Positions 3,756-33,314 are shown, numbered from the stretch's first letter. The stretch is DNA of 52,971 bases from Candidatus Micrarchaeota archaeon (GCA_964640735.1 CAZXIK010000001.1:1-52971); one strand, 5' to 3'. Notes: a model not told the origin generated them from the letters alone. A program made the numbers and translations.

Positions 3756-3892
3756 ACGGTATTTATTTGTAGTCAGCTATATGAATACATGCATCAGCCA
3801 GCGGCGATAATCTGGGGGAAGTCAGGATAATAGTAGACAAGCGCGAAAGAAACATAGAAATCCTTGAGGGGCTTTCGGGATCCGGAATAATA

Positions 3893-4453
3893 GTGAACCT
3901 CGAGTCGCTTCCTGTCGGAGACTACATATTATCTGAGCGGATCGGGGTTGAGCGCAAGACTGTCCACGATTTTGAGAGCTCCATAATCAATGCTAGGCTC
4001 TTCGACCAGATAGAGAGGCTGGACCACAGCTTCAAGAAACCCATCCTGCTGCTCGAGGGAGAGGACTCTGAGTTCACTATGAACCCGAACGTCGTGCTTG
4101 GCGCGATAATAAGCCTCTACAGGGATTACAACGTTCAGGTAATAAGGTCCAAAGATTCCCAGGAAACGGTTTCCACCCTTGCGCGGCTTGCCGAACTGGA
4201 GCAGGATGATAAGCGACAGCCGAGAGTTTTGGGTTCAAAAAAAGCGCACAGCGATGCCGATTGGCAGATATTGATACTTAGCTCGTTGCCCGGTGTTGGG
4301 CCCAAGCTTGCAAAATCGTTGATAAGCCACTTCAAGACAGTAAAAGGTGTTGTTTCTGCGAATCCAGAGGAGCTCATCAAAGTCCAGAAAGTGGGAAAGA
4401 AGAAGGCGCAGAGAATACACGAGATACTTAACGCCGAATTCAATGGAAACTAG
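3893..4453 (+). CDS. XPF/ERCC4-family structure-specific nuclease (short archaeal XPF: nuclease domain plus HhH2). The true N-terminus almost certainly lies upstream, reaching at least 3821.
   Basis: The ERCC4 motif is GDY...ERK..HD, and the C-terminal (HhH)2 reads LPGVGPKLAKSL...VQKVGKKKAQRI. In-frame sequence upstream of the GTG call encodes VRIIVDKRERNIEILEGL, which is the conserved first strand and acidic motif, but it has no ATG, GTG or TTG. Confidence 0.8.
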   Translation: MNLESLPVGDYILSERIGVERKTVHDFESSIINARLFDQIERLDHSFKKPILLLEGEDSEFTMNPNVVLGAIISLYRDYNVQVIRSKDSQETVSTLARLAELEQDDKRQPRVLGSKKAHSDADWQILILSSLPGVGPKLAKSLISHFKTVKGVVSANPEELIKVQKVGKKKAQRIHEILNAEFNGN

Positions 4454-28313: not shown

Positions 28314-29834
28314 TTGTTTGGGGGCATTCGCGTGGGAAACGGAACTCTGCTTGAGCTGGTGACAAGGCTCAATGGAAAGGTGATCATCAGTTCCGATGTC
28401 ACCGATTCCGACCTTGAGAACGTCGATATGGAATCCCTTTTTGCAAACGTGATTGAACATTTTGAGAGATCTGAAAGCGCAATTCTTGGGAAAAAGGAAC
28501 TCGTTGGCATCATCTCAAGCATGAAGGAGAAAAAGGAGCCTGTGCAGGTGGAGATAATAAGGTCAGGAGACTTCAAGCCTCTGTCCAAGGAGCTTGACGC
28601 TGATTATACTTCCAGAAATGTCAAAGTAGACAAGACGTCTTCGAGCGTGACCGATTTTGTCGATTACTTCCAGAGCAGGTTCAGGAAGCTGAGGGAGATA
28701 ATCAAGTCCCACGGGCTCAGCGGCATGATAGGCAACATTGAAAGCACAAAGCACTACATCGACGGCAGGGAACTCGTGATGGTCGGCATAGTGTTTGACA
28801 AGATTGTCACAAGAAAAGGCCACATACTTGTAACTCTCGAGGATGAAACTGGAACCGCGAAGGTGCTGTTCCTCAAGCCGCAAAGAAAAGCAAGGGACCA
28901 GGCGAATGAGCTATTTGATGCCGCAAGCAGGCTCGTGAAAGACGACGCCGTGGCCGTAAAGGGAAAAGTGGCGAATCCGTTCATATTCGCGTCAAAACTG
29001 CTTTGGCCTGACGTACCGATACACTACCCGAACAAGAGCGAGGAGGATGTTGCAGTAGCGCTTGTATCGGACGTCCATGTTGGCCACAAACTTTTCATGG
29101 AAAAACAGTTCGGCAAGTTCCTGGAGTGGGTGAACGGCGGCGTGGACAAGAGGAAAGACCTTGCCGAGAAGATAAAATACATGGTGATCGGCGGGGACCT
29201 GGTGGACGGGATAGGAATATACCCACAGCAGGAAAAAGAGCTTGCGATAGACGACATCTACAAGCAGTATTCAGTCTTCTTCGATTTCCTGCAGAGCATT
29301 CCCGATTACATAGAGGTTTTTGTGATTCCAGGAAATCATGATGCTGTGCAGAGGGCGGAGCCCCAGCCCCAGATAGGAGACAACTTCCTTGACGATTTCA
29401 AGCGAGAGAACGTGCACATGATGACCAACCCGTGCTATCTGAACCTCCATGGGACGAAGTTTCTCGTCTATCACGGGACCTCCCTCGATTCAGTCATAAG
29501 AAGCATACCTGGCTGTACCTACGGCACGCCCACTGATGCGATGAAGGAGATACTTAAGAGGAGGCACCTTTCGCCGATATACGGCGGAAACATAATAATT
29601 CCTGGAAAAACAGACTCGCTCGTGATAGACGAGGTGCCGGACGTGCTGCACATGGGCCACATACACAAGAATGGCTATGACAACTACCACGGAACTGCGA
29701 TAATAAACAGCGGAACTTGGCAAGGAAGGACCGGCTTCCAGGTGAAGCAGGGCCACATACCTTCGCCGTGCCTCCAGCCCATCTACGAGACCAAGACGAT
29801 GAAAATGAACCTGATCGACTTCAACGAGGTGTGA
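28314..29834 (+). CDS. DNA polymerase II (PolD) small subunit DP1
   Basis: An OB-fold region is followed by calcineurin-like phosphoesterase motifs: VSDVHVGH, GGDLVDG, GNHD, GHIH. A TATA-like TTTAAATA lies about 30 nt upstream. Confidence 0.9.
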   Translation: MFGGIRVGNGTLLELVTRLNGKVIISSDVTDSDLENVDMESLFANVIEHFERSESAILGKKELVGIISSMKEKKEPVQVEIIRSGDFKPLSKELDADYTSRNVKVDKTSSSVTDFVDYFQSRFRKLREIIKSHGLSGMIGNIESTKHYIDGRELVMVGIVFDKIVTRKGHILVTLEDETGTAKVLFLKPQRKARDQANELFDAASRLVKDDAVAVKGKVANPFIFASKLLWPDVPIHYPNKSEEDVAVALVSDVHVGHKLFMEKQFGKFLEWVNGGVDKRKDLAEKIKYMVIGGDLVDGIGIYPQQEKELAIDDIYKQYSVFFDFLQSIPDYIEVFVIPGNHDAVQRAEPQPQIGDNFLDDFKRENVHMMTNPCYLNLHGTKFLVYHGTSLDSVIRSIPGCTYGTPTDAMKEILKRRHLSPIYGGNIIIPGKTDSLVIDEVPDVLHMGHIHKNGYDNYHGTAIINSGTWQGRTGFQVKQGHIPSPCLQPIYETKTMKMNLIDFNEV

Positions 29835-29975
29835 AAGACGGATACTGAAGAATATTTCAAGAACCTTGAAGAGAAGTTCGATATAGCCTACAGCATAGCC
29901 AGCAAGGCCAAGGCTGTCGGATTCGATCCGCATCCGAACGTTGAGATAAAGGTAGCACCGGATCTTGCAGGCAGG

Positions 29976-32900
29976 GTGGAGGGGCTCATTAACGTAAAGG
30001 GCATCTCGGAGCTCATACGCAAAAACCAGCAAGTGGTCAAGAACAGGAACGAGCTGATCTTCATGACGATAAAGGAGATCTGCACAAACAGCGAGTTCTC
30101 CAGCCACGAGACCATAAAAAGGATAGAGCTTGCAGTAAGGGTCGCGCTTGCGATGATAACTGACGGGGTGCTGGTTGCGCCTACTGAAGGGATGCAGGGA
30201 ATCTCGCATTTCAGGAATCCGGACAACTCCGATTACATCGCAGTATCCTATGCAGGGCCGATAAGGAGCGCGGGAGGAACTGCCGTTGCGCTATCGGTAG
30301 CTTTTGCAGATTACGCAAGGAGATTCTTCAGCATAGGAGACTACCGTGCCACCCCGAATGAGATAGAGAGATATGTGGAAGAGCTTGAGATCTACCACGA
30401 AAGGGTTACCCCGTTGCAATACAGACCTCCTGCCGATGAGATAAGAACGATTGTTTCCAACTGCCCTGTCTGCGTGGACGGGGTTCCCACAGAGGAGGTG
30501 GAGATAAGCGTGCATGCAAACATGTCGAGAAGGGGATTCGACGGCAAGGACGTGGCTGTAACAAACAGGATCAGGGGGGGAATCCCGCTCGTGGTCAGCA
30601 GCATAGCGCAGAAAGCGAAGAGCGTCTCTAGGGAGGTGAGGAAGGCGGGGCTCGACTGGAGCTGGCTTGATGGCATAATCAAGCTGGACAAGGTAAAAGC
30701 GGCGCCGGAAGCTTCGAAGGACGAGACTGCGGTGTTTCTCGATGAACTCGTGGCGGGAAGGCCGATACTTGCTTACCCGAAGCACTTCGGAGGCTTCAGG
30801 CTAAGGTATGGGAGGAGCAGGATGACCGGAATAGCGGCGAAGGGCTTCAGCCCCGCTACGATGGCGATAGTCGACGATTTCATAGCGATTGGCACGCAGT
30901 TGAAGATAGAGCTTCCCGGAAAGGGGTGCGTAGCCTCGCCGGTCGATTCGATTGAGGGGCCTTTTGTGAAGCTCAAGTCTGGAGAGTCGCTGCGCATAAA
31001 TGACGCCGAGACCGCCAGGCTGCTGAGGAACCGGATAGGGAAGATAATCTGCCTGGGAGACGTGCTCATAACCTACGGGGATTTCAAGAAGAGCAACACG
31101 AAGCTGCAGCCCAGCGGCTACGTCGAGGAGTTCTGGGAGGCCCAGCTGAGAGATGCAACAAAGGAAATGCAGAAAGTCGACCATGCAAACATAAGTTTTG
31201 AGGAAGCGTATGCGGTTTCGATGAAATACAGAATACCGCTTCACCCAAAATTCCTCTTCGAATTCCAGGCAGTGGACGCGGAAGAGCTGGAATTGCTTGC
31301 AAGCGCAATTTTGCCTTCGCTTGCTAAAAGCAAAACGGCCAGGGAGATTGAGGGTTTGAAGATCCAAGCCGGAGATGGGACAGATGGGACATCGGAGCTC
31401 GACAGAATACTCGACATGCTCATGGTCCCCCATGCTTTCGCAAACGAAGGCATTGAGATCAGAGGGGACTACGCAAAGGCGCTCATTACGTCGCTCGGGT
31501 TCACGGAAGGTTCAGACCTTGGGATCAGGACAGAGGGGGTGATGGAAAAGTACAAAGCAGGTTATGACGACACTCTCTCGCTTGTAAACTCGGTCTCGCA
31601 AGTCAAATTGATGAAAAGGTCGATATTCCTGGGAGCAAGAATAGGCAGGCCTGAAAAGGCGAAGGAAAGGCTGATGAAACCCGCACTGAACATACTATTT
31701 CCTATCGGATTCAGGGGCGGGAAGGAAAGAAATCTTTCAAACGCTTACATTGCAGGCACGAAAAAGTTCGGAAGCACAGGAATGGATGTAGAGATAGCGT
31801 CCTATAGATGCGACTCGTGCGGACTTGCTATGGATACACCTTATTGTTATAGCTGCAAGAGGCGCTGCAGGATAGATTACAGGTGCCCGAACTGCGGAAT
31901 CAGGCAGGAAACTCCGGTCTGCAGGAACTGCGGCGCTGAAACCCGGGCTTACGATGAGAGGGGCATCGATTTCGAGGCGCTGGTTTCAAAGGCGATGCAA
32001 AAAATAGGCGTGGACAAAATGCCCAAGTCAGTGAAGGGCGTCAAGGGGCTCGTGAGCAGGAAGAAGATAGCCGAGCCTGTGGAAAAGGGCATATTGAGGT
32101 CGATGCACGGCGTTTACATTTTCAAGGACGGCACTGCAAGGTTTGATGCCACAGACATGCCGATAACTCACTTCTATCCGAAGGAGGTAGGAGTCAGCGC
32201 AGCAAAACTGAGAGAGCTTGGCTATGACAAAGATTATGAAGGAAAGGAGCTTGCGAGCGAAAATCAGTTGCTCGAACTCAAGCACCAGGACGTAATAGTG
32301 AATAAAAGGGGCGGAGAGTACCTGCTAGCGGTCTCCCGGTTTGTCGATGACATGCTGCAGAGGCTCTATGGAATGGGCGCCTACTACAGGGCAAAGGACT
32401 CCCAAGACCTTATCGGCAAACTTGTTTTGAGCCTGTCGCCTCACACGTCCTGCGCCGTGCTAAACAGGATAGTAGGATTCACGGAAGCAAATGTAGGTTT
32501 CGCGCATCCCTACGTGATCTCGGCGAGAAGGAGGAATGCGGATGGTGACGAGGACACGATAATGCTGCTTCTTGACGCCTTGATAAACTTTTCAAGGGAA
32601 TACCTTCCGGTTACGATAGGAGGCACGATGGACGAGCCTCTACTCATGATGACGCGCGTGATGCCGCAGGAGGTTGACGACGAGGTCCATGCGATGGAGG
32701 TAGTAAACGATTATGGGATCGAGTTCTACAGCAAGACGTTCGAGAACGCATCCCCTGATGAGGCCAAGGTTGAACTTGTTAAGAACAGGCTTGAAACGCC
32801 AGGGGCTTTCCATAACCTTAGCTTCACCCATGCCGCATCTGCCAACGCGATACGCGATTCCCCGAAGAGCAGCATTTACACAATCCTCAAGACGATGGAC

Positions 32901-33314
32901 GAGAAGATAGACGAAGAGTTCAAGGTCATGGACATGCTCGAGTCGATAGACAAGCGGGATGCGGCGCGCAGGCTGATAAACGGGCATTTCATACGGGATC
33001 TCATCGGCAACCTGCACTCATTCTCAAAACAGAGGTTCAGGTGCTCCTCGTGCAACGCGAAGTACAGGAGGGTTCCGCTGAGCGGCAAATGCACAAGGAA
33101 CAACTGCGGCGGGAAGCTCCTGCTTACGATATCCAAGGGGAGTATCGAGAAATACCTAAACACTTCAATAAAGCTTGCAGACAGGTATAACCTCGACACA
33201 TACACCAAGCAGAGGCTACAGCTCATAAAGGACGAGATAGGCAACCTATTCGGCGCCCAAGAGGTTAACGCTGATGAAAACAAGGGCCAGTTCAATCTGG
33301 TAAACTTCATGTGA
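29976..33314 (+). CDS. DNA polymerase II (PolD) large subunit DP2. The conserved N-terminus continues upstream to about 29835.
   Basis: More than 1100 aa with DP2 patterns: SYAGPIRSAGGTA, LQYRPP, Cys-rich zinc modules CDSCG...CYSC...CPNCG...CRNCG, and a C-terminal CSSC...C..NCGG. In-frame codons 29835-29975 encode TEEYFKNLEEKFDIAYSIASKAKAVGFDP...DLAGRVE, the canonical DP2 N-terminus. Confidence 0.92.
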   Translation: MEGLINVKGISELIRKNQQVVKNRNELIFMTIKEICTNSEFSSHETIKRIELAVRVALAMITDGVLVAPTEGMQGISHFRNPDNSDYIAVSYAGPIRSAGGTAVALSVAFADYARRFFSIGDYRATPNEIERYVEELEIYHERVTPLQYRPPADEIRTIVSNCPVCVDGVPTEEVEISVHANMSRRGFDGKDVAVTNRIRGGIPLVVSSIAQKAKSVSREVRKAGLDWSWLDGIIKLDKVKAAPEASKDETAVFLDELVAGRPILAYPKHFGGFRLRYGRSRMTGIAAKGFSPATMAIVDDFIAIGTQLKIELPGKGCVASPVDSIEGPFVKLKSGESLRINDAETARLLRNRIGKIICLGDVLITYGDFKKSNTKLQPSGYVEEFWEAQLRDATKEMQKVDHANISFEEAYAVSMKYRIPLHPKFLFEFQAVDAEELELLASAILPSLAKSKTAREIEGLKIQAGDGTDGTSELDRILDMLMVPHAFANEGIEIRGDYAKALITSLGFTEGSDLGIRTEGVMEKYKAGYDDTLSLVNSVSQVKLMKRSIFLGARIGRPEKAKERLMKPALNILFPIGFRGGKERNLSNAYIAGTKKFGSTGMDVEIASYRCDSCGLAMDTPYCYSCKRRCRIDYRCPNCGIRQETPVCRNCGAETRAYDERGIDFEALVSKAMQKIGVDKMPKSVKGVKGLVSRKKIAEPVEKGILRSMHGVYIFKDGTARFDATDMPITHFYPKEVGVSAAKLRELGYDKDYEGKELASENQLLELKHQDVIVNKRGGEYLLAVSRFVDDMLQRLYGMGAYYRAKDSQDLIGKLVLSLSPHTSCAVLNRIVGFTEANVGFAHPYVISARRRNADGDEDTIMLLLDALINFSREYLPVTIGGTMDEPLLMMTRVMPQEVDDEVHAMEVVNDYGIEFYSKTFENASPDEAKVELVKNRLETPGAFHNLSFTHAASANAIRDSPKSSIYTILKTMDEKIDEEFKVMDMLESIDKRDAARRLINGHFIRDLIGNLHSFSKQRFRCSSCNAKYRRVPLSGKCTRNNCGGKLLLTISKGSIEKYLNTSIKLADRYNLDTYTKQRLQLIKDEIGNLFGAQEVNADENKGQFNLVNFM

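Follow-up and report, generated by a model that had tools for sequence, protein, structure and literature searches.

The DNA stretch analysed here (the window; 52,971 nucleotides from Candidatus Micrarchaeota archaeon, a tiny uncultured organism, GCA_964640735.1 CAZXIK010000001.1:1-52971) carries side by side the genes for the two subunits of PolD, which is essential as the replicative polymerase in most archaea. The gene for the small subunit, DP1, ends in a C-terminal DFNxx-stop that is kept in relatives, and behind its stop codon this frame is open over 29835-33314, encoding the large subunit, DP2. The junction reads ...AAC GAG GTG TGA AAG ACG GAT ACT GAA GAA TAT TTC...; AAG alone separates the DP1 stop from an ACG codon, and the next canonical start lies 46 codons 3' of this ACG. 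The features are listed below in window coordinates.

28314..29834, plus strand: DP1 (PolD small, exonuclease subunit), an ORF with Pfam matches to DNA_pol_E_B and Metallophos, ending in ...DFNEV-TGA
29826..29831, plus strand: Shine-Dalgarno (SD) sequence GAGGTG, identical with the final two codons of DP1 and placed 6 nt 5' of the ACG
29831..29848, plus strand: out-of-frame mini-ORF GTG AAA GAC GGA TAC TGA, judged not functional, its frame or presence varying among relatives with ACG
29832..29834, plus strand: DP1 stop codon TGA, in the same frame as DP2
29838..29840, plus strand: ACG, the proposed DP2 start codon, aligned with the start codons of relatives
29838..29975, plus strand: DP2 N-terminal stretch of 46 codons omitted by the gene call, recognised from pN/pS, Pfam PolC_DP2_N and alignments to DP2 chains in the PDB
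29838..33314, plus strand: full DP2 as proposed (PolD large, catalytic subunit), 1158 codons, with three DP2 Pfam domains and an open frame throughout
29976..29978, plus strand: GTG, the first canonical in-frame start and the one chosen by the gene caller, judged internal

A scan of the open frame bears out the initial annotation in that it contains no ATG, GTG or TTG from 29835 until the GTG at 29976. The ORF counted from this first canonical start (29976..33314) encodes 1112 aa, and it is this form that is stored for the present genome in the public protein collection (P0003); the DP2 proteins of two relatives are also stored shortened in public data, with 1131 and 1119 aa. Automatic callers drop 46 conserved DP2 residues here because a normal start codon is absent. 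Among the ORF leads of this genome, a start-less stretch of 47 codons ranks at about the 90th to 95th percentile and is thus not rare alone; the weight of the finding lies on homology and on the alignment with the start codons of relatives.

That a conserved DP2 N-terminus precedes every canonical in-frame start and directly follows the DP1 TGA in the same frame, as the initial annotation had it, is upheld by the sequence, Pfam and PDB comparisons alike. The open frame matches, in order, the Pfam families PF03833 (1.2e-84), PF24844 (2e-107) and PF24846 (3.4e-122), i.e. the PolC_DP2_N, central and catalytic domains, with residue 6 of the translation between stops matching position 1 of the PolC_DP2_N profile. 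DP2 chains in the PDB match at E about 1e-55, and the Pyrococcus chains among them align from the codon directly after ACG, i.e. from residue 2 of a query beginning with ACG. Comparison with congeners gives pN of 0.17-0.28 and pS of 0.65-0.87 for the 46-codon segment, and dN/dS of about 0.09-0.12 (0.09 between two sister species with ACG). The strength of purifying selection on these codons equals that on the rest of the gene, and stops and indels are absent from them in three ACG lineages. The alignments thus indicate that the 46 codons from ACG to the GTG at 29976 are under purifying selection and lie within the DP2 N-terminal domain.

The comparison of orthologous junctions, suggested by the initial annotation as a check, places the start of the orthologues at the equivalent of 29838 and not of 29976. 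At 118 DP2 loci from the family and the order, the codon aligned to the ACG is ATG in 75, TTG in 24, GTG in 5, ACG in 4, CTG in 4 and GCG in 1, while in the other five a canonical start stands one codon off; the aligned column itself is therefore occupied by a canonical codon at no fewer than 104 of the 118 loci, and no relative with a canonical DP2 start begins at the equivalent of 29976. ACG is found in four species of the genus (the present one and, in independent assemblies, G001, G004 and G010), and it is shared by G001 and G004 despite their synonymous sites differing at 48-60% of positions. The GCG, two mismatches away from AUG, belongs to another congener, G007. A scan of 400 genomes of the phylum for the ACG-type DP1/DP2 junction pattern returned only the four known members of the genus, the rest being at the control level. 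In two metagenome contigs, the DP2 gene has CTG right after a TAA in its own frame and the DP1 stop lies in another frame, which makes read-through from DP1 impossible there.

The GAGGTG preceding the ACG matches GGAGGTGATC over 6 nt; in a congener, the 3' end of the 16S sequence reads ...GGATCACCTCC, which gives the anti-SD. The duplex predicted at DP2 reaches -9.8 kcal/mol, the strongest among 12 congeners, and its spacing of 6 nt is also found elsewhere in this genome, where SD spacing peaks at 5 nt. When the DP2 loci are grouped by class of start, the mean duplex energies are -5.5 kcal/mol (ATG), -6.65 (GTG/TTG) and -8.8 (non-canonical codons). SDs are stronger at the non-canonical starts (Mann-Whitney p = 3e-5; ACG/GCG alone p = 0.002), with the proviso that such statistics count related genomes as independent and that ACG or GCG occurs in 3-4 lineages only. 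A stronger SD at a weaker start is what would be expected under initiation and is unexpected under read-through of the DP1 stop, and the in-frame layout of that stop fails to account for the gradient. A test of SD plus codon across the start-less ORF leads of this genome (G000) gave a weak and non-significant signal for ACG (5/142, p = 0.06), and it is underpowered, about 9% of the ATG starts carrying a 5-nt SD. A hairpin able to mask the DP2 SD is predicted in this genome alone (z = -2.2); it is not conserved, a consensus fold of the junction across the genus yielding 0 pairs.

From these comparative data we consider it probable that DP2 is made by SD-driven initiation at the ACG at 29838-29840, closely coupled to the termination of DP1. 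Either a free small subunit or a ribosome that has just finished DP1, whose stop lies 3 nt before the ACG, would be held by pairing with GAGGTG, which would set the ACG into the P site; the initiator Met-tRNA (anticodon CAU) would then pair with ACG with one mismatch at the middle base, and DP2 would begin Met-Asp-Thr-Glu-Glu-Tyr-Phe. The weakness of ACG might be offset by the extra-strong SD together with the tight coupling to DP1. We infer each of these elements, namely actual initiation at ACG, Met as the first residue and the coupling to DP1 translation. An intergenic distance of -8 to +10 nt between genes for subunits of one complex has been described as a setting for termination-reinitiation coupling (PMC10666635); DP1 and DP2, with a gap of 3 nt and products that form a heterodimer, agree with this description in both respects. 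Two reports count against ACG as the start: initiation at ACG in E. coli reaches 0.1-1% of that at AUG (bioRxiv 10.1101/063800), and a 2021 review lists non-canonical events in archaea as demonstrated only at elongation and termination (PMC8211752). The position of the DP1 stop, which is in frame with DP2 at all five ACG/GCG loci, is not predicted by the initiation model, and the GCG of G007 is hard to explain as a start.

This in-frame layout deserves closer attention. It occurs at 5/5 ACG/GCG loci (with gaps of 0, 0, 3, 9 and 9 nt) versus 14/96 canonical ones, an association with Fisher p = 1.5e-4 when related genomes are counted as independent and about 0.0005-0.04 when they are counted as 3-4 lineages. 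In two sister pairs the codon and the frame change together: G005 has GTG and an out-of-frame stop versus GCG and an in-frame stop in G007, and G008 has TTG out of frame versus ACG in frame in G010. More broadly, non-ATG starts are found at 13 of 19 in-frame loci compared with 19 of 83 out-of-frame loci. The same arrangement recurs in the present genome at nuoC-TGA-ACG-nuoD, where the nuoC stop is in frame with nuoD. One way to accommodate these observations would be a frame-dependent coupling, in which a start as weak as ACG, or indeed GCG, is tolerated only where the stop of the partner gene is in frame, and a meaningful share of DP2 (and NuoD) is produced through a DP1-DP2 (NuoC-NuoD) read-through fusion or through in-frame resumption after termination. 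We regard this as rather unlikely, although, if true, it would represent a kind of recoding whose only described archaeal cases are those of selenocysteine and pyrrolysine.

A related reading, which we likewise hold to be unlikely, is that a near-cognate tRNA decodes the DP1 TGA in some ribosomes, such that all or part of the DP2 would be produced fused to DP1. With read-through as a back-up route, the ATG could have decayed to ACG, and the GCG of G007 would be more easily explained; the association between frame and start codon described above speaks in its favour. The climb of SD strength as the start codon weakens does not, and neither does the outcome of a search for natural DP1-DP2 fusions, which found none among the best 120 of 1538 junction-region matches in 5.8 billion proteins, none of these matches covering more than 50% of the region; the DP2 open frames of 118 genomes measure 1121-1292 aa. 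According to the solved structure of PolD, the binding site of DP1 lies in the C-terminal clamp-1/Zn-III part of DP2, and it is the DP2 N-terminus that anchors the KH domain to clamp-2 (PMC6355029), and given this architecture a DP1-DP2 linker of 1-4 residues looks too short. Read-through would moreover require leakiness at both TGA and TAG. Neither a suppressor tRNA with a UCA or CUA anticodon (among 37 tRNA predictions from an incomplete genome) nor a conserved RNA structure at the junction (0 pairs in the consensus fold) was found, and gene pairs with an in-frame gap of 0 in this genome show no excess of weak starts (7/15 non-ATG versus about 46% overall). It also counts against this reading that the insertion of selenocysteine and of pyrrolysine are the only cases of read-through demonstrated in archaea (PMC8211752).

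Two further explanations, both very improbable in our view, dispense with a special start altogether. The true DP2 start might be the GTG at 29976, with a protein devoid of the first 46 residues and a decaying remnant upstream. This codon is indeed the first canonical in-frame start and the choice of the gene caller, but the 46 codons before it evolve under purifying selection and belong to the N-terminal domain defined by Pfam and crystal structures, no SD was noted before 29976, and relatives with canonical starts never begin there. Alternatively, the ACG might reflect a sequencing or assembly error, the real base at 29839 being T (giving ATG) or one base having been wrongly inserted. The sequence comes from a MAG that is fragmented into 141 contigs and 83% complete, and a second assembly of the species was found neither in a metagenome scan nor in the public protein collection. 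Against an error stand the same ACG in three further species with separate assemblies and the same T-to-C difference at the start of nuoD in this genome, and it would leave unexplained why the strongest SDs of the genus precede both ACGs. The locus can be explained without the one-base insertion considered in the initial annotation.

C-to-U editing of the mRNA, by which ACG is made into AUG in plant organelles, appears still less plausible here: ACG, like the GCG of G007, is precisely the kind of codon that such a change would convert, to AUG and GUG respectively, but archaeal C-to-U editing is known only for a tRNA, and editing would leave the SD compensation unexplained. As to the three mechanisms offered by the initial annotation, non-canonical initiation is thus the best supported, with ACG 29838-29840 as the codon concerned, whereas a programmed +1 frameshift from the GTG at 29831 finds next to no place among the explanations. 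This GTG, as stated there, is in the other frame and meets a stop five codons on (GTG AAA GAC GGA TAC TGA), and a stop in the A site near an SD recalls prfB; a shift at TAC-TGA would yield MKDGY-EEYF.... We reject it since the GTG is the last triplet of the GAGGTG and hence has no upstream SD of its own at a workable distance, tRNA-Tyr on UAC is unable to re-pair on ACU, the predicted N-terminus MKDGY is not conserved, and the offset proves not to be conserved in relatives either: the GTG lies 8 nt before the ACG in G001 and G004 (versus 7 here), where a -1 or +2 shift would be required, and is missing from G007.

Initiation at ACG, the reading we favour, has precedents among eukaryotes and their viruses, such as VP2 of AAV and C' of Sendai virus. 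What these and the ACG starts of E. coli share with the DP2 case is the single mismatch to the initiator anticodon, a weak and context-dependent activity and, where measured, Met as the first residue. The DP2 gene differs from the eukaryotic and viral examples in that it is archaeal, ACG not being accepted as a start codon in archaea, that an SD and coupling to an upstream stop would take the place of the Kozak context, and that ACG would be the sole start of an essential gene rather than that of a minor isoform. Bacteria also have conserved weak starts, e.g. the AUU of E. coli infC, and translation table 11 admits CTG, ATT, ATC and ATA as alternatives. As in infC, a poor start is conserved on a housekeeping gene, consistent with a role in setting the expression level; ACG, in contrast, is outside the starts of table 11, and no autoregulatory logic is evident at DP2. 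The frameshift of prfB (RF2) resembles the junction in having an SD near an in-frame UGA within the coding path, but DP2 offers no slippery codon for the P site, can be read without any shift, and stands in a frame relation that is not kept among relatives. A further parallel is translational coupling by termination-reinitiation in archaea and bacteria (Huber et al. 2019, PMC6728339; 2023, PMC10666635), with a co-directional pair of subunit genes, a gap of 3 nt and the SD inside the upstream gene, although those studies used canonical start codons and the coupling at DP1/DP2 is putative.

If the ACG truly initiates, start selection in archaea would be looser than the ATG/GTG/TTG rule built into every gene caller. 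The gene for the catalytic subunit of a replicative polymerase lacks an accepted start codon here, a feature shared with three related species. The gradient of SD strength against start weakness provides a quantitative and testable signature by which such starts could be found systematically. Should the in-frame association hold in more genes, it would suggest that termination and production of the downstream subunit are linked in a way so far unrecognised.

Near-cognate starts may not be confined to DP2 in this genome. The nuoD gene has TGA|ACG here, versus ATG or TTG at 13/13 loci from 12 congeners, and its SD (-10.0 versus a median of -4.7) is the strongest in the genus. A search for this pattern in 248 genomes of the order gave four matches, and because each of them is preceded by ATG, the nuoD ACG start is unique to this genome. 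An automatic start-column pipeline applied to neighbouring genes was discarded as too noisy, since it also took up shadow ORFs and Met columns inside genes. Neither a missing aIF1 nor an unusual initiator tRNA is indicated as the cause of a relaxed start selection, aIF1 being present in this genome and 5 congeners and the initiator tRNA being standard. The gene for an ERCC4 nuclease has CTG at window position 3812, the aligned codon being ATG, TTG or GTG at 10 of 12 congener loci, with the remaining 2 starting at an ATG a few codons upstream. This gene has its own promoter and no co-directional gene upstream, so read-through is impossible there, and a near-cognate start occurs nonetheless.

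The DP1 gene, encoding the small (exonuclease) subunit of PolD, ends in the window with ...AAC GAG GTG TGA AAG ACG GAT ACT GAA GAA TAT TTC..., and the frame of its stop codon stays open onward to 33314, GTG 29976 being the earliest ATG, GTG or TTG in it. Two features define the junction:

28314-29834, forward strand: DP1 ORF, with the terminal TGA at 29832-29834
29826-29831, forward strand: Shine-Dalgarno (SD) motif GAGGTG, 6 nt upstream of the ACG codon at 29838-29840

The public entry P0003 is a 1112-aa DP2 (the large, catalytic subunit), i.e. exactly the truncated product expected from GTG 29976. All three DP2 Pfam domains are found in the translation from 29835, with position 1 of the PolC_DP2_N profile matching residue 6, and alignments with solved Pyrococcus DP2 chains begin at the codon directly downstream of the ACG. 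The initial annotation had placed the conserved DP2 N-terminus upstream of any canonical start; sequence, ORFs, Pfam matches and Pyrococcus alignments bear out every detail of the junction it described, and the finding is real. The genome is a MAG of 0.94 Mb in 141 contigs, 83% complete, whose closest named relatives are "Candidatus Micrarchaeota archaeon" MAGs with 71-77% DP2 identity. The reading we favour, and consider reasonably probable, is that DP2 starts at ACG 29838, where the very strong GAGGTG motif and the close coupling to DP1 translation would both help initiation.

We compared DP1/DP2 junctions from 118 loci. The set takes in each of the 13 species in the genus, 117 family genomes and some members of a sister family. 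The N-terminal motif xxxEYF is kept in every locus, and the start codons of the relatives line up codon for codon with ACG 29838-29840: ATG in 75 loci, TTG in 24, GTG in 5, ACG in 4, CTG in 4 and GCG in 1, with a canonical start offset by one codon in 5 further loci. ACG occurs exclusively within the genus, in the genome under study (G000) and in the congeners G010, G004 and G001; these four genomes take at least two or three separate positions in the DP2 tree (G001 and G004 are sisters). G007 has GCG. In G010 an in-frame GTG immediately follows the DP1 TAG, so this species may use a canonical start instead. Weak DP2 start codons are a genus-wide trait: ATG is found in 2 of 12 congener loci (L002-L012, L024) versus 77 of 106 others (Fisher p = 2e-4). 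Turnover among ATG, TTG, GTG, ACG and GCG is fast between sister species of the genus. The GCG locus of G007 (L006, or L209 on ENA contig k141_171803) has 19 codons without a canonical in-frame start and a DP2 gene call truncated to 1131 aa; its GCG has two mismatches against AUG and is followed by an ACG two codons later.

The 3' end of the 16S rRNA of one congener, ...GGATCACCTCC, gives GGAGGTGATC as the SD consensus, and GGTG peaks in frequency 5 nt upstream of start codons in G000. Across the 118 loci, the mean predicted SD/anti-SD duplex strengthens from -5.5 kcal/mol at ATG through -6.65 at GTG/TTG to -8.8 at non-canonical starts (Mann-Whitney p = 3e-5 for the nine non-canonical loci together, p = 0.002 for ACG/GCG), the genomes being mutually related and the duplex energy taking no account of spacing. 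At -9.8 kcal/mol, the G000 duplex is unsurpassed in the genus. The in-frame layout is not the source of this gradient, since canonical loci show no difference between in-frame (-6.3) and out-of-frame (-5.7) arrangements (p = 0.46) and the ACG/GCG loci exceed even the canonical in-frame ones (p = 0.02). SD-led initiation at a codon predicts that a weaker start codon selects for a stronger SD. This SD compensation is one of two new quantitative observations made here, the other being the in-frame association described below. The SD region is also predicted to pair with a downstream AACCUUG in a hairpin (29805-29925, forward strand; -31 kcal/mol, z = -2.2), which could hide the SD until DP1 is translated; the hairpin shows no conservation across the congeners.

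A full-text literature search yielded no description of ACG start codons in archaea, and according to a 2021 review demonstrations of non-canonical archaeal translation events exist only for elongation and termination (PMC8211752). Non-AUG initiation complexes are destabilised by aIF1, and the initiator tRNA performs a local scan around the position that the SD sets (PMC6237735). Initiation at ACG in E. coli reaches 0.1-1% of the AUG level, with N-terminal Met (bioRxiv 10.1101/063800). The initiator tRNA and aIF1 offer no obvious cause for relaxed start selection: in the G000 tRNA the anticodon is the standard CAU and both A1:U72 and three G:C pairs are present, and aIF1/SUI1 was found in G000 and five congeners. 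Termination-reinitiation coupling, which requires a distance of about -8 to +10 nt, is over-represented among genes for heteromeric complex subunits (PMC10666635). A DP1/DP2 gap of 3 nt falls inside this range.

G000 was also screened for coding-like ORF leads without a start, followed by Pfam searches and within-genus comparison. Three further genes stand out:

Contig C2, about 30167 (locus L120), reverse strand: nuoD TGA/ACG start directly behind the in-frame nuoC stop
Window 3785-4453, forward strand: ERCC4/Hef-type nuclease gene with CTG at 3812-3814, from Pfam and congener alignment
From 52925 downward, at the edge of the window, reverse strand: gatA, a GatA-like amidase with an Amidase domain

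The nuoC/nuoD junction reads nuoC-...GGA AGT GAT TGA ACG ACG ACA AGA ATC AAC. The codon aligned with the first ACG is ATG or TTG in all 13 loci from 12 congeners, G000 standing alone with ACG among 248 genomes of the order; its SD (-10.0 versus a genus median of -4.7) is the strongest in the genus. In the nuclease gene the ERCC4 domain sets in 20 codons upstream of the first canonical start, and the CTG, aligned with ATG, TTG or GTG in 10 of 12 congener loci (the other two start a few codons upstream), is the likely start. It is preceded by no co-directional gene, and the conserved AT-rich stretch upstream of it, which resembles a promoter, carries stops in every frame, making read-through impossible. 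Likewise, two loci on JGI metagenome contigs, L152 (Ga0208045_1000715) and L210 (Ga0212124_10006976), have CTG at the aligned DP2 start with an in-frame TAA directly upstream and the DP1 TAG out of frame. Together with the nuclease gene, they point to near-cognate initiation without a read-through option in this group. The DP2 gene call of L210 is truncated to 1119 aa, and CTG also occurs at the DP2 start in L021, L098 and L101, where a DP1 gene is absent upstream. The Amidase domain of gatA begins at least 26 codons upstream of any canonical start, behind the in-frame TAA of an ORF cut by the contig end; CTG (4th codon) and ACA (2nd codon) are candidate starts, congener homologues being only 42-49% identical.

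Read-through of the DP1 stop into DP2 is unlikely, and retains what probability it has because of the in-frame association, a pattern not foreseen by the initiation model. Each of the five ACG/GCG loci has its DP1 stop in the frame of DP2 (gaps of 3, 9, 9, 0 and 0 nt), as opposed to 14 of 96 canonical loci and none of seven canonical congeners (Fisher p = 1.5e-4; about 5e-4 to 0.04 if counted as 3-4 lineages). Start-codon class and stop frame change jointly between sister species, non-ATG starts occur in 13 of 19 in-frame versus 19 of 83 out-of-frame loci, and the nuoC stop of G000 is likewise in frame with nuoD. However, SD compensation speaks against read-through, as do the DP2 open frames of 1121-1292 aa in every complete locus searched. 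No natural DP1-DP2 fusion appears among the best 120 of 1538 junction-region matches, each of these 120 covering at most 50%. In the PolD structure (PMC6355029), DP1 sits on the C-terminal clamp-1/Zn-III part of DP2, whose N-terminus is on the clamp-2 side; a linker as short as 1-4 residues seems implausible on this layout. Neither a suppressor tRNA among 37 predicted G000 tRNAs nor a conserved structure at the junction was found, and weak starts are not over-represented in other G000 gene pairs that are in frame with a gap of 0. All this argues against read-through as the main route.

A start at GTG 29976, giving the truncated protein, is a minor possibility. The 46 codons from the ACG to this GTG show pN of 0.17-0.28 against pS of 0.65-0.87 in comparison with congeners, and the ACG sisters G001 and G004 have a dN/dS of 0.09 there, similar to 0.12 over the rest of the gene. 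Such purifying selection rules out a decaying remnant and argues against the downstream start; on substitution pattern, the segment skipped by the gene call appears to be translated. Also minor is the +1 frameshift from GTG 29831 offered initially, which we reject: this GTG belongs to the SD, UAC is unable to re-pair in the +1 frame, and the shift site is not conserved, its counterpart in G001 and G004 lying 8 rather than 7 nt upstream of the ACG, so that another shift would be required, and G007 having no such GTG. Assembly error and C-to-U editing of the start are likewise minor possibilities.

Three other ORFs of G000 deserve mention. In a Nop5/Nop56-like gene (C75 46-298, forward strand) the Nop domain begins 36 codons upstream of the first canonical start, while the usual N-terminal domain seems to occupy a different frame at the edge of the contig, which may reflect a frameshift or a split gene. 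An aldehyde dehydrogenase C-terminal fragment of 131 codons (C23 149-449, forward strand), with a 100-codon lead lacking a start, probably stems from a pseudogene or a frameshifted gene. Finally, a ParE/RelE-like toxin ORF (C113, reverse strand, about index 1964) begins with TAA/ACG directly behind a putative antitoxin, with TTG seven codons downstream as an alternative start.
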